This document shows, in pieces, positions 8,896-21,372 of a DNA stretch of 26,093 nucleotides. Position 1 is the first letter of the stretch. Each line of letters opens with the position of its first letter. Source of the stretch: Thermoanaerobaculia bacterium (GTDB taxonomy: Bacteria > Acidobacteriota > Thermoanaerobaculia > Multivoradales > UBA5704); NCBI GenBank assembly GCA_044226625.1, contig JBGAGQ010000080.1, positions 1 to 26,093 on the forward strand, given 5' to 3'. The notes beneath the pieces were generated by a model. The model did no database searches. It was not told the DNA's origin and saw only the letters and a list, made by a program, of their open reading frames with translations. The translations under genes were made by a program, and so were the position numbers.

Positions 8896-8954
8896 GGGGG
8901 GCGGGTGTCGCTCTCTCCTAATCCTGCTCCAATTGGGCCCCGCGGCTCGCGATG

Positions 8955-9027
8955 TGGGTCCACCTGGATTTGAACCAGGGACCTGCCGGTTATGAGCCGG
9001 TTGCTCTCACCGCTGAGCTATGGACCC
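8955..9027 (-). tRNA. tRNA with CAT anticodon, most likely tRNA-Ile2 (lysidine-modified); CCA not encoded
   Basis: GGGTCCA TAGCTCAGCGGTGAGAGCA ACCGG CTCATAA CCGGC AGGTC CCTGG TTCAAAT CCAGG TGGACCC A. Paired G1-C72, so not an initiator. D-arm and anticodon arm resemble known Ile2 tRNAs; elongator Met is not excluded. Confidence 0.9.
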
Positions 9028-12816: not shown

Positions 12817-14619
12817 TCAGATGCCCAGGGCGCGCGAATCGCCGGCCGCGAGGATGCGTACCAGCTCTTGATAGAAATAATCCGTCGACTCGACCACTTT
12901 CGGATCGACCCGGTCCTCGTACATCTGGCGCGAGCGGTCGATGTCTTCCTTCAGACGCTCGTAAACGTCGCGGTTCCGGCGACCTTCCTCGACCTGCTCT
13001 TCGTTGTACAGCTTGATCTCGCTCACCAGCAGCCGAGCGAGGCGGCGCGCTTCTTCATGAACCGGCTCGTCGTCGAGGGACACCGCGGGCATCCTCCCGG
13101 TCGAGAAGGCCCAGCCGGGTCCTTGGACCCCGCTGGGCGGTCGGACCTCGGCCGTGCGCCCCGCGTCGCCGGACACCGCGCGCAGCGGCTCGGTCGGTCC
13201 CGCGTCGAGCGGAGCCCCGGGCAGAGCCGGTTCCGCGGGCAGGTCGGACGGCAGATCGGCGAACGGAGACGTCGCGGGAGCGGCGGCCGGCGGGGCCGCC
13301 GGCGCGGTCGGCAGCGTGCGAAGCAGGACCGTCTCGTGGCCGCTGGCCTCGTCTGCCGGAAGCTCGGGCGACGGGGCTTCGGCCGCCGCGGGCTGGTCCA
13401 GATAGGGGCTGGGCGCCGTCCACGGGGAGGGCTCCGGCTCGGGAAGCGGGATCGAGTCCAGGTCGAGCGGCGGCAGGACCGGCTCGTGCTCGATGAAGAG
13501 CGCGCCGGTGCCGAGCGCCTCGACCCCGACCGCCTCGACCTCCGCCTCGTCGGCGGGCGCATCCGCATGGGGATGCCCAAGGATCGCCGCGGTCTCGTCG
13601 AGGTCGATCGTCGCGCGCGCGGCCTCGACTTCCTCCGCCGGCTCGGCAACAGGCTCGATGGTCGGTGCCGAGAGGGCCTGGGTCGCCGCCGGCTCGGGTT
13701 CGGGTTCGGGCTCCGGTTCGGGCTCGATCGGTGCCGGCGGCGGGGCGATCGGTAGGGCGACCGTGGGCGCGGCGACCGGCTCCGCCGCTCGGACGGCCGC
13801 TTCCCTCTCGGACCGCTGGAGCGTCGCGGTCTGGGCGCGCTCGCGGAACGGCAGGGTTTCGATCGATAGCGCCACCAGATGCGCGAGAGTTTGAAGCGCT
13901 CCGGTCTCGAGCGCGCGCCCGTCGAGCGCATCGGCGTAGACCGCCGCGGTCACCCGGTCGCGCAGCACGAGAGGAATCAAGATGCCCTCGCGAGCCGCGT
14001 CGGCGCCCAGGTCCCCCAGGAGGGCCGCGCAGTCGTCGGAGGTCAAGGCGATCGCTCCGTTTCCGTCGATCATCCCGGCGGCGAGCGCATGGTGGCGCGG
14101 CACGCTCAGCTGTCGGACTTTCGCGGCGTCGAAGCCTTGGCCGCCCCATCCGGCGAGTCCATCCGGCCGAACCAGAAGAACCGCCGCTCGGGAAGCGAAC
14201 CGCAGGCTCTCCGAGAGCAGGGCGTCGAGGATCTCGCCTTGGCTGCGGGCGCGGTCGATCGCCGTGGCCGCGGCGTGGAGGTCGCTCTGCGCGGCGGCCC
14301 GGCCTTCCCCTCGTCCCGCCACGTGGCCTTCCGCGTGTCCTCGGGCGTGGCCTTCTTCGCGGCCGCGAGCGGCGATGGCTTCCTGGTCGACCGGTTCGGG
14401 GAGGGCTACCGGTTCCGGCGCGGGCACCGCGTTGGCGATCTCAGTGACCGGCACGTAGGCGCCGGGCAGGTCGGGGCGCAGCTCGCGCACCTGTCGCAGC
14501 GTCTCTTCGTGACCCGCCTGCAACCGCCCTTCGATCTCGGCGCGCAGCTTGGCGAGGCCCGCCTCGACCGCATCCGCGATCTCCCGATCCAGCTTCTCGA
14601 GTCGTTCAACGAAAGACAT
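12817..14619 (-). CDS. Hypothetical protein: coiled coil, GxxxG repeats, GAF-like domain, Pro/Glu/Ala linker and conserved-looking helical C-terminal domain
   Basis: 600-aa ORF with host-like codon usage. IDRARSQGEILDALL...RAAVLLV...LIPLVLRDRVTAAVYAD is GAF-like; the C-terminus is HEEARRLARLLVSEIKLYNEEQVEEGR. ATG 14619 is preferred because 14709 overlaps a promoter motif. Confidence 0.8.
   Translation of the reverse strand: MSFVERLEKLDREIADAVEAGLAKLRAEIEGRLQAGHEETLRQVRELRPDLPGAYVPVTEIANAVPAPEPVALPEPVDQEAIAARGREEGHARGHAEGHVAGRGEGRAAAQSDLHAAATAIDRARSQGEILDALLSESLRFASRAAVLLVRPDGLAGWGGQGFDAAKVRQLSVPRHHALAAGMIDGNGAIALTSDDCAALLGDLGADAAREGILIPLVLRDRVTAAVYADALDGRALETGALQTLAHLVALSIETLPFRERAQTATLQRSEREAAVRAAEPVAAPTVALPIAPPPAPIEPEPEPEPEPEPAATQALSAPTIEPVAEPAEEVEAARATIDLDETAAILGHPHADAPADEAEVEAVGVEALGTGALFIEHEPVLPPLDLDSIPLPEPEPSPWTAPSPYLDQPAAAEAPSPELPADEASGHETVLLRTLPTAPAAPPAAAPATSPFADLPSDLPAEPALPGAPLDAGPTEPLRAVSGDAGRTAEVRPPSGVQGPGWAFSTGRMPAVSLDDEPVHEEARRLARLLVSEIKLYNEEQVEEGRRNRDVYERLKEDIDRSRQMYEDRVDPKVVESTDYFYQELVRILAAGDSRALGI
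13691..13726. repeat. Degenerate hexamer tandem repeat encoding (Glu-Pro)n
   Basis: GGCTCG GGTTCG GGTTCG GGCTCC GGTTCG GGCTCG, inside the linker of the 12817-14619 CDS. Confidence 0.7.
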
Positions 14620-14699
14620 GCGATTGGAGCCCCCGAAATCGGTCGAAGAGTGATTATGGAAATCGGCTCCTGTGGTGTCAAGCCGAAAGAAGCGCGGAA

Positions 14700-14778
14700 A
14701 CTCTAGCATTCATGAGACTTTTTGCGCCCGGGCGGTTCGCCCGTCGCCTTGCCGCTCGCTTTGGCGCCGTGCTACCTT
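14700..14778. promoter_or_regulatory. Divergent pair of extended -10 promoters
   Basis: TGCTAGAGT on minus (14700-14708) and TGCTACCTT on plus (14770-14778), each upstream of its divergent CDS. Confidence 0.5.
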
Positions 14779-15786: not shown

Positions 15787-15865
<79 letters not shown>

Positions 15866-15873
15866 GAAATTCT

Positions 15874-15910
15874 CGAGGCAGGCCGAAAGGCCTGCCTCGT
15901 TCTGTTTTGT
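15874..15910 (+). terminator. Rho-independent terminator after tRNA-fMet
   Basis: 11-bp stem CGAGGCAGGCC-GAAA-GGCCTGCCTCG followed by TTCTGTTTTGT. Confidence 0.88.
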
Positions 15911-18900
15911 GTGCTCCCCTCGAAGGCCCTGCTGCATGCCCAAACCTGTCGACGCGATGCACATCTTTGGATAATTGCATGGTGTGTAATTCGTGAAATC
16001 CTCCACGAAGGCGAATTTCCCAGAGGCGCTAGCCTGCAAGCCTAGTCTTTCACTCTAATCTTTCACGTGACGAGAAGTAACTGCGGCGGGGTCGTTGGTA
16101 GGGTATTGATCCGTCCTTCCCTCTCCCCGTGCGGAGGACACATGAGTGGCGACGGCAACTATGCGGGTGTCAATTACCAGGCAAGTGTCATTGCATACGT
16201 CTTTGTCCATGCACTGACTGATACAAAGCTCCGATGGCTGCCTTTAGCTGATGACACTCCTTCGGCAATCGCGGGCGAAGTCCATGGGCCTGGAGATGAC
16301 GCCCGTGTTGAGTTTCGGGCTGGAACGGCACCAATCGAAATTCAGGCAAAATTCGGCCTGAAGCCACAAAAATGCATTGAGGCATTTCAGACCATCCGCG
16401 ATGCATCCACGCCATCCGACGACACTCTTGTATGGCTAGTCGTCGATCCAACCTCCAGCCCTGCCGTCCGCAATGAATTAAGCCGAGATTTAGATCGACT
16501 TCGAACAGGTCGCACGGACAGCCTAAGGCAGCTGACACAGGGAATACTGTCTGCTCTTGGGTCAAGGGCTGACGACGTCATGCGGCGAACTCATATTCTC
16601 ACACTAGACCTGGGGAGGCTCTCAAATGCCAGCACCTCGAGAGCGCTTGAGATCCTGGCCGAAAGTTTGGACGATGAATCTCAAGCAGCCGCTGCCTGGG
16701 CCGTCTTTGAAAAGGATGCTGCCCTCATGTGTGCCGAAAAAACTAGACGCACGAAGCAAGCATTGATCGACGTTCTAGCTGGCGTCAAGATTGGGGTCCG
16801 GCCCCCTCGTCGGACTCGAAAATGGCACGATGACCTTCGGCACACCAAAAAGTTGCTCGAAGACGAGGAACCCGCGCTTGCGTTCTCTCTCCTAAGGCAG
16901 ATCGAGTCTGATTTCCTCAGCACTGGAATACAAGATGGTCAAGTTCTTTACAAGATCAGTCAGCATCGATCTAGTGCCCTCCTGAAGATGCAGCGATGGC
17001 AAGAAGCCATTAACTCGGCCGAAAGAGCCCTCGATCATGATCCGCACGGAATTCATGCACTAGTAAACTTGGCCCTGGCTCAAGAACTCAGCGGCGATAT
17101 CCAGTCGGCGGTGGCAACCGCAATACGGGCGACCACTACGCACGCGCAGTCGCCGTCCGCGTGGCTGATTCGACTTCGTCTACCGGTAGAAGCTGGCCAG
17201 CCTCCGATCGAGGTTCCCCCGGAGGTCGCCTCGACCAGCGAATTTCGATTCGGTCTTGTTGGTAACCATCTCTTTAGCGGTGAGGCGGCTCCGGCCCGGG
17301 ATGTCATCGCATCATTGATAAGAGATGGCGACAGGTCGCCTCGTGCCCTACTACTACGCGCAGTAACTCTCTTTGCAGATATAGAAAATGTCACCGATGG
17401 CGAACGACTAGATCGTGCTCGGGAAGTCGAGCGCCTTTGCACCGAGGTTCTAGACAGCGATGCCAGCCTATCGACCTCACAGACTCAGGAAGCGCTCATA
17501 AGCCGCAGCCACGCCCGGCGAATACTTGGAAATCGTTCCGGTGCTCAGGACGACAGCGAGCGAGCACATTCAATTCGGCCTGATGACGCCCGTGCATTGT
17601 TCATGGCTGCCTCGACTCGCGTCCTTGCTGGCGACGAGGACGGTGCGCTCGATATTCTGTCTGGACCAGTAGTCGAGAACAATCCATTTCTGCGTGCACA
17701 GCGCGCAAGTTTGCGGGCAGCGAAGGGGCAGTTAGAAGGTGCACAAAAGGACCTCGAAGCGGCTTTGCGGTCAATTCCAACAGCTGCTGAGCCCGATGAA
17801 CTTAGATCAGCCGCAGCTGAAGCCGCCCTGCGTATCGGCGATGTGGATCTCGCCAAGAAGCTGACGGCAGAGATGGCCTTAAGCGAGCAAGTGCACTCGG
17901 TAACTCACCTGGTTACGCTGGCCCGTATCGCTGCGCTCGAAGGAGACCTTGGCGAAGCAGAGAACCGCTACCGTGAAGCAATTGAAGCATTCCCGTTTAC
18001 CCGAACCGAGCTGCTTGTCGAGCTAGGTTCGAGCCTGTTGGCAGCCAAAAAACCCGCGGCTGCGGCACAAGCGCTAAGAGAGGCCGGAGCTCTCGATGAG
18101 ATCGCGGAGCGCATGCTTGTGCGCGCACTGGTGTTGTCGGATCAGCTTCTTGCGGCCAATCAAGCGCTGGAAGTTGTTGCCAACAAAGGTCCCATGCCCG
18201 ATTGGGCGGTTGGCATCGCCGCGCAAATTGCACTAAGGAGGAATGACCCGGAAGCCGCCGCGGCACATCTTGAAGATCTGTTTGTTCGTGGAATGACAAC
18301 TGCCGGCGGCCACCTGAAACTTGCCGAAATCCTTGTGGGGCTCAACAGGCGCGACCGCGCTCGAGTTCATTGTGACGCTCTCGCTTCCGACCCAGATCTT
18401 TTGCCTCACGAAAGAATGTTTCTTGCACATCTGCAATCAAAACTCGGGAATTTCAGTGTCGCCATCCAGCAAGCACTGAAGGCATTCAGAGATCAACCGG
18501 ATGATGCGGAGATGAATCGAGCCTTCGTGTCGTTGGTGGTTGGCACGAAATCGAAGCCTGTCGAGGTTGGTTTCGTAGGGCCCGATACGCATGTATTTCT
18601 GGTTGGGGATGGCAGCGAGATTCTGGAGTACGTTCTGTTCGCAGACTCTGCCGCGTCGAGGCTCACCAATGAAATTTCGTTAGAGGAGGCTCACAAGATC
18701 GGCCTGGTTGGCCTTCGCGTCGGAGATTTGTTTGCTCGGAACCAGGGTGCATTCTTTGAAAGTCGATTCAGGGTCGAGAGGATTCAGTCGGCCGTCAAAT
18801 ATCTCGTGAATGACATCATGGCTAGCTACGGAAGGAGGTTTCCAAGCGAGGAGTTTTTTGTGACCACATTCAGTTTCAATAAGGACAGTTCAGGGGTCAG

Positions 18901-20090
18901 TGAGTTTCAACCCTTAATTAGCTCCACTCACGAACGGAAACGTTATCAAGATCAGATTTTCAAGCTCTATCTGGAGCACTGCCTTCCTCTCGCGGTAGTG
19001 TCGAAACTCACTGGCGGGACGGTGCCTGACGTGATTACTCATGTATCCCGGCCCCAAAGTGACCTGCCGCTGTACGTGGAGTTCCACGACGAAGGGCGTG
19101 TCGCTTCCAGGACTGCCGCGCGATCGCAGCTCCCAACAATTCTCTCAAGATCAGCCCTCCATACAGCGCAAAGGTTCGAGTTTCTCTCGCTCTTGGCGGA
19201 TGGACGACGGTGTCTGGCGCCAATTTCTCTAAGAGCCGAGATCGACGCGGAAGTCGAAGAGGCTGAAGATCGAATCAAGAGTGGCTGGGCAGTCGTTGCT
19301 CCTAGCGAGCGTGGCTTTCTGTTTCACCAAACGGATGCTGGTGATCCCTCTCTCGTCCGCGAACGAGATTCAATAGTCGGGCTGCGCGACTGGGTCGTGG
19401 CGAATGTCACCTTCGTCCCTCGACCGCTGGAAGTGTTTAGTGATCCACGAACAAAGGATCACGAAGAAATTCGGACCAATCTGGGAGCCAGCTCGAACGA
19501 CGCGCTCGAACTATCGATGTTCGTGCCAGGAGTGCTACATGCTGATGATTTGGGCTTGAGGAAGTTGGCTAGTGGTTTGGGTCTTTCCTCGTTTTCAACT
19601 GTTTCGCTGATCCAGATCTGGGCCGAGGGAGGAGCATTGAGTGCGCGCGAACGGGACCAGCGTCTGGTTGACTTGGCCGAGGTCCATTACTACCAAATTG
19701 AAGTGTCGCCCGAGGTTTTAATAGAAGCTCTGGCGCCCGGGCGACCACAGCAGGCCTCGCGTGAAGTCTTTTCGCTGTTGGCAGCAGCACCGTTGGAAGT
19801 TCAGTCATCAGCCGCGATGCTGGTTCGAGCGGTCAAATTGGTGGCAATGCAGAATGTGAAGACGACAACCGCGGAGCGAGTCATTCGGGAAGGCTTAGAG
19901 GCTATGGCGGAACGGTTTCAGGCCGTGCCAATCGCCCATGCCCTACGGCGGGCTGCAGATATTGATCTCGCCCTTCTCCCAAGAGAGCGACAGATTGTTG
20001 TGAATGCCGCCAACAACCTCCTAAAGACTCGGCTTATTCATTGACAGGCGCAGCGGTCAGAATTGAGAGGATTTAGGCTCTCCGGCGATT
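15911..20090. mobile_element. Lower-GC single-gene genomic islet downstream of tRNA-fMet (no integrase or att repeat seen)
   Basis: Abrupt switch to many A/T-ending codons and visibly lower GC right after the tRNA terminator, returning to host style at the convergent MFS gene. Boundaries are approximate. Confidence 0.6.
16142..20044 (+). CDS. 1300-aa putative defence protein: PD-(D/E)xK-type nuclease, TPR array, GreA/B C-terminal-like domain and PIN domain
   Basis: GGAGGA SD before ATG 16142. N-terminal AGVNYQ...E.HGPGDD...IEIQAK; many TPRs (e.g. WQEAINSAERALDHDP); EISLEEAHKIGLVGLRVGD (GreA/B-C-like); C-terminal NDALEL...LHADDLGLRKLA...FST (PIN-like). Confidence 0.8.
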   Translation: MSGDGNYAGVNYQASVIAYVFVHALTDTKLRWLPLADDTPSAIAGEVHGPGDDARVEFRAGTAPIEIQAKFGLKPQKCIEAFQTIRDASTPSDDTLVWLVVDPTSSPAVRNELSRDLDRLRTGRTDSLRQLTQGILSALGSRADDVMRRTHILTLDLGRLSNASTSRALEILAESLDDESQAAAAWAVFEKDAALMCAEKTRRTKQALIDVLAGVKIGVRPPRRTRKWHDDLRHTKKLLEDEEPALAFSLLRQIESDFLSTGIQDGQVLYKISQHRSSALLKMQRWQEAINSAERALDHDPHGIHALVNLALAQELSGDIQSAVATAIRATTTHAQSPSAWLIRLRLPVEAGQPPIEVPPEVASTSEFRFGLVGNHLFSGEAAPARDVIASLIRDGDRSPRALLLRAVTLFADIENVTDGERLDRAREVERLCTEVLDSDASLSTSQTQEALISRSHARRILGNRSGAQDDSERAHSIRPDDARALFMAASTRVLAGDEDGALDILSGPVVENNPFLRAQRASLRAAKGQLEGAQKDLEAALRSIPTAAEPDELRSAAAEAALRIGDVDLAKKLTAEMALSEQVHSVTHLVTLARIAALEGDLGEAENRYREAIEAFPFTRTELLVELGSSLLAAKKPAAAAQALREAGALDEIAERMLVRALVLSDQLLAANQALEVVANKGPMPDWAVGIAAQIALRRNDPEAAAAHLEDLFVRGMTTAGGHLKLAEILVGLNRRDRARVHCDALASDPDLLPHERMFLAHLQSKLGNFSVAIQQALKAFRDQPDDAEMNRAFVSLVVGTKSKPVEVGFVGPDTHVFLVGDGSEILEYVLFADSAASRLTNEISLEEAHKIGLVGLRVGDLFARNQGAFFESRFRVERIQSAVKYLVNDIMASYGRRFPSEEFFVTTFSFNKDSSGVSEFQPLISSTHERKRYQDQIFKLYLEHCLPLAVVSKLTGGTVPDVITHVSRPQSDLPLYVEFHDEGRVASRTAARSQLPTILSRSALHTAQRFEFLSLLADGRRCLAPISLRAEIDAEVEEAEDRIKSGWAVVAPSERGFLFHQTDAGDPSLVRERDSIVGLRDWVVANVTFVPRPLEVFSDPRTKDHEEIRTNLGASSNDALELSMFVPGVLHADDLGLRKLASGLGLSSFSTVSLIQIWAEGGALSARERDQRLVDLAEVHYYQIEVSPEVLIEALAPGRPQQASREVFSLLAAAPLEVQSSAAMLVRAVKLVAMQNVKTTTAERVIREGLEAMAERFQAVPIAHALRRAADIDLALLPRERQIVVNAANNLLKTRLIH

Positions 20091-20094
20091 CCCC

Positions 20095-21372
20095 CTACTG
20101 CGACGTTGCGCTTGGAACCGGCTGAATCGCCCCGGGCTCAAGCGTTTCCGCGGGTAGAGAGGACTGTGCCTGATCCGCGGCTGAGGGCGGTGCTTCCCTC
20201 CGCGGCTCGGTGACCCGTCGCGTAAGCCCTCCCACGCCGAGCATCAGCGCGGCGGACATCCAAAACGGGGCCTGGGGGCCGAGGAGGTCGAAGGCCTTGC
20301 CGGCCCAGATCGGACCGAGCATGCGGGCGACTCCTCCGAAGGCCTGTTGGACGCCCATCACCTGACCGGTTTCTCCCTCCGGCGCGGAGCGCGAGACGAG
20401 CGCGGTGGTCGCCGGGAAGAGGAGCGCGGTGCCGACCGGGACGAAGAGGACGGCGACGGCGAGCACCGGGATCGCTGGAGCGAAGGGGATCGCGGCAAGG
20501 CCGATCGCCAGGGAGATCGCGCCGAGCTTCATCACGCCGACCTCGCCGAATCGGCGCACCATCGGCCCGAGCAGGACGGCGCGCATGACCAGCGAGATGC
20601 TGCCGACGTAGGTGTAGAACCAGCCGATCGATTCCTTGGTGACGCCGAACTTCCGGGCCAGGTAGAGCGCCAGGATGCCGTTCATCGCCATGAACGCCAT
20701 CATGCCGACGGCGTAGACCCAGATCAGAGAAGCGACCGGAGAGGTCGGCTCGCGCAGCACCTCGACCACCGCCTTTTGGAGCGAGCGGCTCGGTGCGGCG
20801 TTCGCATTCGGCGCGTGCCGCCTCGGCTCGGGGAGCCAGAGGTAGGCCGAGATCGCGTTGGCGATGCACAGCGCGGCGGCGACGAAGCCCGGACCTGAAG
20901 GCCCGAGGCGGGTGGCGTACGAGCCGATCAGCGGGCCGATCATCACCCCCGCACTGGTCGCCGCGGTGATCCAGCCGAGCGCCTTGGCGCGTTCGTCGGG
21001 CGGCACGGCGTCGCTCACGTAGGCCTGGACCACGCCGACGGTCCCGCCTCCCACGCCCTGGACGAAACGGAACACGAACAGCATCCAGATCGACGTGGCG
21101 AAGCCGAACAGGCCGAACGCGGCCGCCGAGATGAGCAGGCCGGCGATCAGCAGCGGGCGCCGGCCGTAGCGGTCGGACAGACGCCCCCAGTAGGGCGAAG
21201 AGAGCAACTGCGCCGCGGCGAAGATCGCCACCAGGAGCCCCACCATCGTCGCGGTCGCCCCGAGGCTTTCGGCGTAGAACGGCAGCAGCGGATGGACGAT
21301 CAGGAAGCCGACCATGTCCACGAACACCGTGGCCATGAGGACCGAGAGTTGGCGCAGCGTGCTTTTTTCCAT
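20095..21372 (-). CDS. MFS transporter, DHA1/TetA-like drug:H+ antiporter
   Basis: About 12 TM helices; VFVDMVGF, motif A GRLSDRYGRRP, RFVQG and motif C GVMIGPLIG. Confidence 0.92.
   Translation of the reverse strand: MEKSTLRQLSVLMATVFVDMVGFLIVHPLLPFYAESLGATATMVGLLVAIFAAAQLLSSPYWGRLSDRYGRRPLLIAGLLISAAAFGLFGFATSIWMLFVFRFVQGVGGGTVGVVQAYVSDAVPPDERAKALGWITAATSAGVMIGPLIGSYATRLGPSGPGFVAAALCIANAISAYLWLPEPRRHAPNANAAPSRSLQKAVVEVLREPTSPVASLIWVYAVGMMAFMAMNGILALYLARKFGVTKESIGWFYTYVGSISLVMRAVLLGPMVRRFGEVGVMKLGAISLAIGLAAIPFAPAIPVLAVAVLFVPVGTALLFPATTALVSRSAPEGETGQVMGVQQAFGGVARMLGPIWAGKAFDLLGPQAPFWMSAALMLGVGGLTRRVTEPRREAPPSAADQAQSSLPAETLEPGAIQPVPSATSQ

Follow-up and report, generated by a model that had tools for sequence, protein, structure and literature searches.

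A single gene of low G+C content, standing next to a tRNA gene in the window (the whole stretch of 26,093 nucleotides that was analysed), raises the question of whether one protein may serve as a complete phage defence system and which of its domains would do the killing. The gene belongs to the TPR-GreA/B-C-PIN (TGP) family and occupies positions 16142-20044 of the forward strand (1300 codons plus stop). Its open frame, 16067-20044 on the same strand, opens with GTG. The true start is placed at the ATG at 16142 and not at the GTG at 16067, because a Shine-Dalgarno-like GGAGGA (16133-16138, forward strand, read from the sequence) lies 3 nt upstream of the ATG and homologues start at the equivalent Met. 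The earlier note had described one intact 1300-aa gene with a series of motifs, and their positions are confirmed in the translation: AGVNYQ at residues 8-13 (16163-16180), GPGDD at 49-53, IEIQAK at 65-70 (16334-16351), the Gre-like EISLEEAHKIGLVGLRVGD at 844-862 (18671-18727), and HADD at 1133-1136. The foreign codon usage beside a tRNA, also noticed earlier, is borne out as well. G+C is 0.54-0.58 across 16001-20000 versus 0.65-0.76 in the flanks, and GC3 of the gene is 0.54 versus 0.82-0.91 in the adjoining genes.

On its left, the insertion site is marked by a tRNA-Met (anticodon CAT; 15788-15864, forward strand; ARAGORN, and Rfam RF00005 at 65.4 bits), which shows 91-95% DNA identity across four genomes of the same genus. 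It is followed by its terminator-like hairpin (15874-15899, forward strand), with an 11-bp stem, 9 GC pairs, and a T-run. The right landmark, which lies outside the system, is an MFS transporter gene (20095-21372, reverse strand; Pfam MFS_1, 1.2e-67), whose orthologues in same-genus genomes are 84-88% identical. Between the tRNA terminator and the MFS stop codon lies a low-G+C, single-gene island of ~4.2 kb (15905-20094). In two same-genus genomes (G003 and G006) the site is empty, with the flanks 110-137 nt apart, and similarity to these empty sites stops just past the tRNA hairpin (blastn junction). At the equivalent site G001 has a different, NRPS-like gene, and G002 has a 65%-identical copy of the TGP gene. 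Neither direct repeats nor an integrase turned up at the island, and no open reading frame of at least 80 aa exists in the 236 nt upstream or the 50 nt downstream of the gene within it. Because the site is empty in two same-genus genomes, the gene is the sole cargo of the ~4.2-kb insertion; it was acquired horizontally, alone, between the tRNA-Met and the MFS gene. The same comparison establishes what had been claimed before, a stand-alone foreign gene beside a tRNA.

The domain order proposed earlier (N-terminal domain, TPR array, GreA/B-C-like domain, PIN-like C-terminus) holds at the level of the family, and the window protein is assigned to the TGP class on that basis. Of 17 aligned homologues, 16 match PF20698 (PIN-TPR-GreABC), the best at 1.5e-10; the score of the window protein itself, 15.5 bits (E 0.021), is under the curated cut-off of 27.8 bits. 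The TPR array (residues ~236-800; 16847-18541, forward strand) is presumed to be a sensor or scaffold. Pfam TPR matches fall within residues 276-650 (TPR_2 9.9e-11, TPR_19 1.8e-10, TPR_14 6e-09, and TPR_16 2e-08), and TPR chains of solved structures match out to profile position 777. The next segment (residues ~810-900; 18569-18841, forward strand) resembles the C-terminal domain of GreA/B. When its profile (A5) was searched against solved structures, GreA (0.019), GreB (0.023), Gfh1 (0.19), and Rnk (0.91) made up 4 of the 11 weak matches, all aligned to their C-terminal domains. GreA_GreB (PF01272) matches 3 of the 17 aligned homologues (best 2.7e-4) and the TGP protein of Bosea (6.3e-4), and does not match the window protein itself, either alone or in a genome-level search. 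The C-terminal 500 aa retrieve 412 cluster representatives at E<=1e-3. The same N-terminal domain is found on 99 of 101 relatives of at least 1150 aa, and other N-termini take its place in distant TGP proteins (e.g., those of Bosea and P0022). The linker between the Gre-like and PIN domains (residues 901-995; 18842-19126, forward strand), delimited by conservation, has no family match, and its P949, L950, and E980 are invariant. By eye only, this linker appears HTH-like. The helical-looking C-terminal tail (residues 1191-1300; 19712-20041, forward strand) is the least conserved region, with a mean identity of 0.30.

The PIN domain (residues ~996-1190; 19127-19711, forward strand) is of the PIN-TPR-GreABC type, as judged from PF20698 and from alignment with the PIN of the Bosea TGP protein, which has a PF20698 match of 1.1e-28 and provided the residue register. 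While the plasmid-borne Bosea protein keeps the canonical beta1 Asp (D998), the clade of the window protein does not. The position is occupied by Ser1002 in the window protein; among 135 relatives, 123 have Thr there, 6 have Ser, 4 have Ala, and 2 have Asp. The other acidic residues are E1033, D1120, D1135, and D1136 (kept in 80, 128, 132, and 133 of the 135), all of which the window protein retains; E1037 is found in 105 of these 135. VapC-type PINs are inactivated by loss of the beta1 Asp. A canonical PIN nuclease with four conserved acidic residues is ruled out here, since the beta1 Asp is replaced by Ser1002. The PIN-like C-terminus of the earlier note is therefore a PF20698-type PIN at family level, and a non-canonical one, as the beta1 Asp occurs in only 2 of 135 members.

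The N-terminal domain (residues 1-235; 16142-16846, forward strand), a predicted effector, was delimited by conservation and by homology to the N-termini of PDC-M54A-like proteins. Its core is formed by residues 1-110 (with YQ, E46, D52, D53, Q68, and K70), and residues 111-235 form a helical part. G9, Q13, E46, D53, and Q68 are present in all 88 family N-domains, D52 in 87, and K70 in 84, the other four having Arg. Since these residues are near-invariant across the 88 domains, the alignment indicates that the motifs are more than chance. The proposed PD-(D/E)xK nuclease assignment has no statistical backing from profile searches. Pfam, a check suggested in the earlier note, matched none of 24 N-domain members; PF14130 (Cap4_nuclease) matched none of the 24 at E<=10 and nothing anywhere in the protein's own genome, and sequence searches of solved structures with the N-domain found nothing relevant. 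In hhalign comparisons with 4-8 Cap4_nuclease domains, E was 0.03-0.5 with a probability below 2%, which is not significant; in these non-significant alignments the YQ, E, DD, and QxK motifs line up with the Cap4 domains. In the ESM Atlas, Cap4_nuclease was the commonest named family (13 of the 30 named nearest clusters, score 0.94), which serves as a lead only. E46, D52/D53, and Q68-x-K70 would best be read as a Cap4/Mrr-type PD-(D/E)xK nuclease site, and the domain is possibly a Cap4/REase-like nuclease.

Another scaffold carries the same domain. The whole N-domain recurs at the N-terminus of P-loop proteins of 1650-1770 aa (74, 59, and 41 bits), which are its only significant relatives outside TGP proteins; in the two architectures together, 141 database proteins have it. 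The P-loop proteins are full-length matches (E = 0) to the PADLOC candidate PDC-M54A, so that the N-domain is reused on a second defence-candidate scaffold. All 24 N-domain sequences match the PDC-M54A model (6e-14 at best, 3.6e-5 for the window protein), with window residues 3-70 matching profile positions 4-72 of 1657. G9, D52, D53, and K70 are conserved in both scaffolds. Of 69 P-loop versions, 43-44 have Q13 and E46 exchanged to E13 and Q46, and 43 have Ser in place of Q68; E66 is not conserved. In PD-(D/E)xK enzymes a carboxylate can move between helix 1 and strand 1, and the Q13/E46 swap would be compatible with such a shift. Weak N-terminal matches to the PADLOC 'Effector Endonuclease' in one P-loop relative (0.0086) and to HamA in another (0.016) are leads only. 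PDC-M54B was not found in the five genomes searched.

Defence databases and gene neighbourhoods give a divided picture. PADLOC, a check that the earlier note had called for, left the full window protein unmatched, and no model calls it a system. The genes neighbouring the island are ordinary and non-defence. The expectation that homologues would lie in defence islands agrees with 4 of 7 loci (10 proteins), while the other 3 loci have nothing defence-related. The four loci with a defence context have a HigB/Gp49-like gene (L001), DUF4365-TPR with HsdS (L006), RelA_SpoT-TPR with TatD (L038), and an MmeI-like methylase (L040).

The best explanation, to which we give a probability of roughly 0.6, is a stand-alone TGP conflict protein that was acquired horizontally as a single cargo and acts through its N-domain as effector. 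We infer that the window protein acts as a nuclease, binds RNA polymerase, and protects against phage. The GreA/B-C-like domain would dock it on RNA polymerase at the rim of the secondary channel, where the long TPR array may sense a phage protein or some change brought about by phage. Activation would free the 235-aa N-terminal effector, so that DNA is cut and infection aborted. The PIN would be a weakened RNase that attacks the transcript, or else a module with a structural or regulatory role. A more specific version is put forward tentatively. In it the 235-aa module is an unnamed effector family (probably a very divergent Cap4/REase-like DNase) fitted to two unrelated sensor scaffolds, namely the TGP core, docking on RNA polymerase, and the P-loop core of PDC-M54A, and the PIN, its first catalytic Asp lost, is now a pseudo-nuclease or regulatory module. 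If this version is true, DNA cleavage by the N-domain would have replaced RNA cleavage at the polymerase as the means of killing, in a one-protein abortive-infection system for RNA-polymerase surveillance that travels as a naked single gene.

The N-domain may instead be no nuclease at all: an effector of some different type, or an adaptor or sensing module common to TGP and PDC-M54A-like proteins, with the PIN or a partner doing the killing. The failure of profile and sequence searches to match nuclease families, the non-significant hhalign scores, the Ser in place of Q68 in many P-loop versions, and the loss of E66 are all as this would predict. It is nevertheless rather unlikely, as the invariant acidic, Lys, and Gln residues are arranged and spaced as D...(Q/E)xK sites usually are, the domain holds the N-terminal 'effector position' in two scaffolds, and Cap4_nuclease is its commonest named language-model neighbour, a lead only. 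Less likely still is a working PIN RNase that cleaves the transcript in the secondary channel of RNA polymerase, the N-domain being a back-up or regulator. Such a model is proposed in the cited sections of PMC8195603, an Agp PIN mutant was defence-negative, though destabilised (10.1101/2024.11.07.622273, as excerpted), and D1120, D1135, D1136, and E1037 are well kept; the rarity of the beta1 Asp in the family and Ser1002 in the window protein speak against it.

That the protein has no immune role, and is a housekeeping or regulatory factor associated with RNA polymerase, is suggested by its Gre-like domain and ordinary neighbours. We consider this very improbable for a gene that is the sole cargo of a foreign island, at a site empty in two same-genus genomes. 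Of 41 related genomes only 2 have a full-length homologue, as do only 2 of the 401 genomes of a phylum sample; copies are often decayed (of 32 loci, 3 are frameshifted and 3 are stubs), and distant relatives sit on conjugative plasmids. This frequent decay would also fit an inert passenger, a remnant decaying without selection in this genome. The gene itself, however, keeps its frame intact through all 1300 codons, has a good Shine-Dalgarno sequence, and retains all family-invariant residues, bar those variable family-wide, and we give the passenger reading just as little credence as the housekeeping one.

Among known systems, the Avs/STAND anti-phage NTPases are likewise single large proteins with a sensor repeat array and an N-terminal effector, in their case a nuclease, but an NTPase module is absent from the window protein. 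The earlier note had excluded this identity for want of a Walker motif, and rightly so: no P-loop family is matched in Pfam, and neither [AG]xxxxGK[ST] nor GK[ST] occurs by regular expression over the whole 1300-aa protein. Avs/STAND identity is rejected on these grounds. PDC-M54A is an untested phage defence candidate in PADLOC (Payne et al. 2024 preprint, 10.1101/2024.01.29.577857). PDC-M54A-like proteins share a homologous N-terminal domain of ~230 aa and, unlike the window protein, continue into a P-loop with Walker A (weakly matched by nSTAND3, nSTAND5, and NPHP3_N) and HEAT-like repeats. The window protein is not a PDC-M54A, since only residues 3-70 match and Walker A is absent. With the Cap4/DUF4297 nuclease of CBASS (PF14130) and related effector nucleases the N-domain has co-linear motifs, putatively a G-x-x-[YF]-Q helix and Glu, (E/D)-D, Q-x-K, and hydrophobic strands, while no HMM or profile-profile match to Cap4 is significant.

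It is reported, in the available part of 10.1101/2024.11.07.622273, that Bab/Agp, a TGP member, defends E. coli against T5, that this protection relies on its GreA/B-C domain, and that a PIN mutant of Agp lost defence, the protein also being destabilised. Agp, from E. coli ECOR25, is a protein of 1094 aa that bears a short amyloid motif at its N-terminus and acts with a second, small protein, the executioner Bab; the N-domain of the window protein is instead enzyme-like and 235 aa long, and the island contains no partner gene. A two-gene system of the Bab/Agp kind is rejected, as the island carries one gene, with no other open frame of 80 aa or more beside it. The earlier note knew of no experimental work on this exact fusion; the novelty of the class is reduced by the tested Bab/Agp and by REase-bearing TGP proteins, already listed in PMC8195603. 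In the sections of that paper cited here, Kaur, Iyer, Burroughs and Aravind (2021) predict TGP conflict systems and their mechanism, with REase among 13 N-terminal effector types. The N-domain of the window protein may be this REase type; unlike the TGP core (PF20698), it has no Pfam model. The window protein is a new member of this already described, mostly untested class. It has the same core order of TPR array, GreA/B-C, and special PIN, and, like the TGP systems described in those sections, it stands alone with few conserved neighbours and a variable N-terminal effector.

The TPR-GreA/B-C-PIN (TGP) gene can be read in its longest form from a GTG (16067-20044, +). Judging from the sequence, the ATG at 16142, rather than the GTG at 16067, is the biologically sensible start. 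GGAGGA (16133-16138) lies 3 nt ahead of this ATG, the product has 1300 residues, and the homologues start at the same Met. No sigma-70-like promoter was found. The motifs that an earlier note had picked out are all where it placed them: AGVNYQ (residues 8-13), GPGDD (49-53) and IEIQAK (65-70) in the N-terminal domain (N-domain; residues 1-235, core 1-110), the Gre-like EIS...GLRVGD (844-862), and HADD (1133-1136). The same note saw no Walker motif, and a motif scan of the protein found no Walker A. Averaged over 16 homologues, identity peaks in the N-core (0.49) and is lowest in the C-terminal tail (0.30), the linker being at 0.35 and the TPRs at 0.36.

The gene is foreign single-gene cargo. 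Its G+C content is 0.54-0.58 compared with 0.65-0.76 outside, and its GC3 is 0.54 compared with 0.82-0.91 in adjacent genes. It is the sole content of an interval of ~4.2 kb between a tRNA-Met(CAT) gene (15788-15864), which is followed by a terminator-like hairpin (15874-15899), and an MFS transporter gene. In two genomes of the same genus (G003 and G006) this interval is empty, and the MFS gene reaches, with its 3' end, to within 110-137 nt of the tRNA and hairpin. When the window is compared with these empty sites, similarity ends just past the hairpin and picks up again within the MFS gene. Direct repeats were not found at the island borders, and an integrase is absent. The foreign origin, stand-alone character and tRNA neighbour claimed for the gene are borne out by G+C, GC3 and the empty sister sites.

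Other genomes of the genus carry different contents at the same tRNA-Met/MFS site. G001 has a single-module NRPS-like gene of 1421 aa (formyl transferase, AMP-binding, PP-binding, and thioesterase; L027:7753-12018), and G002 has a TGP copy, 65% identical and with 54-57% G+C, flanked on both sides by extra MFS 3'-end fragments. This intergenic site is a hot spot for large, single cargo genes. In the G002 locus (L031, G002:C102:27000-43000), the TGP copy lies between tRNA-Met and an intact MFS gene, and the fragments are ~300 nt before the TGP start and ~150 nt after the stop, hinting at repeated insertion, or at recombination, at the 3' end of MFS. Downstream is a small ORF whose helix-turn-helix is XRE/HigA-like by eye. 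Adjacency to a tRNA is not general in the family: of 24 loci scanned, few have a tRNA within ~1.2 kb.

The remaining genes of the window are ordinary, including a sulfatase, an SLT transglycosylase with TPRs, the MFS transporter, and ABC transporter parts. Rfam over the window gave nothing except two tRNAs. The second, also tRNA-Met(CAT), is at 8954-9027 (-), on the other strand and 6.8 kb upstream, in a local dip of G+C to ~0.66. An ORF of 630 aa at 12817-14709 (-) has good coding statistics and no Pfam family; it is 65-72% identical across five same-genus genomes.

The TGP class was predicted by Kaur et al. 2021 (PMC8195603). There, the core of the class is described as constant yet fast-evolving, and it is fused to EAD10 or one of 13 effectors, REase and HNH among them. 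The genes mostly stand alone, and action on hijacked RNA polymerase is proposed. It is reported, in a preprint (10.1101/2024.11.07.622273), that the TGP member Agp and the small protein Bab protect E. coli from T5, and that mutating the GreA/B-C domain of Agp abolishes the protection.

The window protein is a member of this class, because its TPRs are significant in Pfam, PF20698 (PIN-TPR-GreABC) and GreA_GreB match at the level of the family, and its Gre-like segment aligns with Gre C-terminal domains. PF20698 stays under its cut-off for the window protein, at 15.5 bits (E 0.021). It matches 16 of 17 aligned family members (best 1.5e-10), and GreA_GreB matches three of the 17 (best 2.7e-4). 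Searched against solved structures, a profile of residues 800-905 gave GreA (0.019), GreB (0.023), Gfh1 (0.19) and Rnk (0.91) among 11 weak matches, each of the four through its C-terminal domain. S846 and L855 are opposite GreA S121 and L130 in the same alignment. The TPR, GreA/B-C and PIN architecture read earlier is largely right at this family level.

A word-indexed search found 20 relatives at 38-66% identity and one at 26%. Searching exhaustively with the last 500 residues brought up 412 cluster representatives at E<=1e-3, of which 126 reach E<=1e-30. Of the 101 collected relatives that reach 1150 aa, 99 share this protein's N-domain. A full-length homologue is found in two of 41 related genomes (the window's own, G000, included), with partial matches, to the TPRs only, in seven more, and, in a sample spanning the phylum, in two of 401 genomes.

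Distant TGP genes exist on eight plasmid records, four of them conjugative, and TGP genes had no match in phage records. An example is the conjugative plasmid of Bosea sp. AS-1 (NZ_CP022370.1), where a 1332-aa 'hypothetical protein' (L069:3835-7833) is a clear TGP, matching PF20698 over the whole model at 1.1e-28. It keeps the canonical PIN beta1 Asp, and its N-terminus differs, with a D...IQCK motif that is Mrr-like by eye. A PF01272 match on contig C6 of G000 was considered as a second TGP and rejected. It belongs to a Gre-like factor of ~640 aa (L077, G000:C6:33500-42500) that is extended far at its N-terminus and has a Gre-like coiled-coil motif and, C-terminally, a GreA/B domain (G000:C6:38490-38633, 6.5e-9); a 1486-aa frame there is a high-G+C artefact. 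The PF01272 search of the G000 contigs returned no ordinary GreA of ~160 aa.

Ten neighbouring proteins at seven homologue loci were examined, and defence- or addiction-type neighbours are found in four: a Gp49/HigB-like gene (L001), a DUF4365-TPR protein with an HsdS subunit (L006), a RelA_SpoT-TPR protein with TatD (L038), and an MmeI-like methylase immediately upstream (L040). Neighbours at the other three are ordinary or uninformative, namely DprA (L043), an FG-GAP/EGF protein (L005), and a protein without any match (L036). The DUF4365-TPR protein (664 aa, L006:5144-7138, +) and the RelA_SpoT-TPR protein (626 aa, L038:237-2117, +, with a weak PADLOC PDC-S33 match) each adjoin the TGP homologue, and these fusions may be further single-protein conflict systems. 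Among 32 fetched loci, three copies are frameshifted (L003, L004, and L056) and three are stubs of the first 46-62 codons (L007:10001-10186, L008:914-1090, and L059:3493-3630). These fit rapid turnover and decay, with metagenome-assembly errors as a possible alternative.

The N-domain is reused on a second defence-candidate scaffold. The whole domain of ~230 aa is found again at the N-terminus of proteins of 1650-1770 aa (per-genome E 2.6e-9 and 3.9e-6; family HMM 74, 59, and 41 bits), which have a Walker-A P-loop, weak nSTAND3, nSTAND5 and NPHP3_N matches, and HEAT-like repeats. Examples are L070:1590-6851 (-), L071:1025-5986 (-), and L072:543-5786 (+). These proteins match the PADLOC model PDC-M54A over its full length (E = 0), and conversely the model matches 24 of 24 TGP N-domains (best 6e-14; the window's own, 3.6e-5). 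With the 110-aa core as query, 141 database proteins of these two architectures came up, with a Pfam call on the domain in none. According to the preprint of Payne et al. (10.1101/2024.01.29.577857), PDC systems are 145 untested candidates obtained via 'guilt by embedding'. PDC-M54B was not found in five genomes, nor beside the P-loop proteins in the three genomes searched for it there, and this carries little weight as the search matched nowhere.

G9, D52, D53, and K70 are conserved on both scaffolds, and the 88 TGP N-domains all keep Q13, E46, and Q68. The conserved residues form a putative active site. The P-loop proteins fall into two N-domain sub-types: 25-26 of 69 have Q13/E46/Q68, and 43-44 of 69 have E13/Q46/S68 jointly in their place. 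The coupling of the Q13/E46 to E13/Q46 charge swap suggests a common site, faced by both positions. Migration of acidic residues is typical of PD-(D/E)xK enzymes.

The YQ / E / DD / QxK pattern of the N-domain is the one seen in Cap4-type domain sequences. Two leads point the same way: Cap4_nuclease is on 13 of the 30 nearest ESM Atlas clusters that have a name, and at the N-terminus one P-loop relative matches PADLOC's 'Effector Endonuclease' and another HamA, both weakly. Profile searches gave no family. Pfam at E<=10 over 24 N-domains returned no recurrent family, the scattered single matches being led by HEAT_EZ (2/24), and Pfam on the whole window protein and on 17 homologues returned no known nuclease family. 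PF14130 had no match in G000. A single N-domain and two N-domain profiles (A4 and A7) found nothing relevant among solved-structure sequences. By hhalign, neither Cap4_nuclease domains from nine genomes (E 0.03-0.5, probability <2%) nor, for A4, the Bosea N-terminus (E 0.24) was significant. A search for short proteins bearing the N-domain found fragments of TGP genes only. The motifs claimed earlier are conserved; no significant match to a PD-(D/E)xK family appeared. We put the probability that the N-domain is a nuclease of the REase superfamily at roughly 0.6; the nuclease claim rests on this domain and is the weakest part of the reading. The architecture lists of PMC8195603 may already catalogue the exact domain as REase.

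The PIN domain was read in the register of the Bosea TGP (PF20698 match from position 1, beta1 VLDTYT, D998), with counts over 135 family members. Four acidic positions are kept to differing degrees: E1033 (80/135), D1120 (128/135), D1135 (132/135), and D1136 (133/135). The HADD aspartates noted earlier are therefore conserved, but the domain is not a canonical PIN: the beta1 Asp position is Ser1002 here, and Thr (123), Ser (6), Ala (4) or Asp (2) across the 135. By this comparison the PIN domain may be weakened or non-catalytic. The model of PMC8195603 has two steps, PIN cutting the transcript first and the effector acting second; that the first PIN Asp is lost throughout the family is directly relevant to it.

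From literature and anatomy together, the Gre-like domain would dock on RNA polymerase and the TPRs would sense infection. The N-domain would be the effector, probably a DNase, and the outcome would be abortive infection. Of the earlier interpretation, architecture and origin largely stand, the account of the PIN domain was incomplete as to the lost beta1 Asp, and the nuclease is unproven. TGP is a widespread predicted immune class, barely tested and proposed to watch RNA polymerase itself, and this locus is a clean natural case of it: one gene with precise borders, and empty and differently filled sister sites.

TGP proteins are already a published class, for which REase-type effectors are on record and one member has been tested. 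Two points may be new, the N-domain common to TGP and PDC-M54A-like proteins and the first PIN Asp lost across the family; neither was found in the literature searched (supplements of PMC8195603 excepted). These findings refine a known class and do not overturn current knowledge. The link to PDC-M54A places the same presumed effector on two independent scaffolds: PDC-M54A has an N-terminal domain homologous to that of the window protein, but PDC-M54A-like proteins add a P-loop and HEAT-like repeats, while the window protein is without Walker A.
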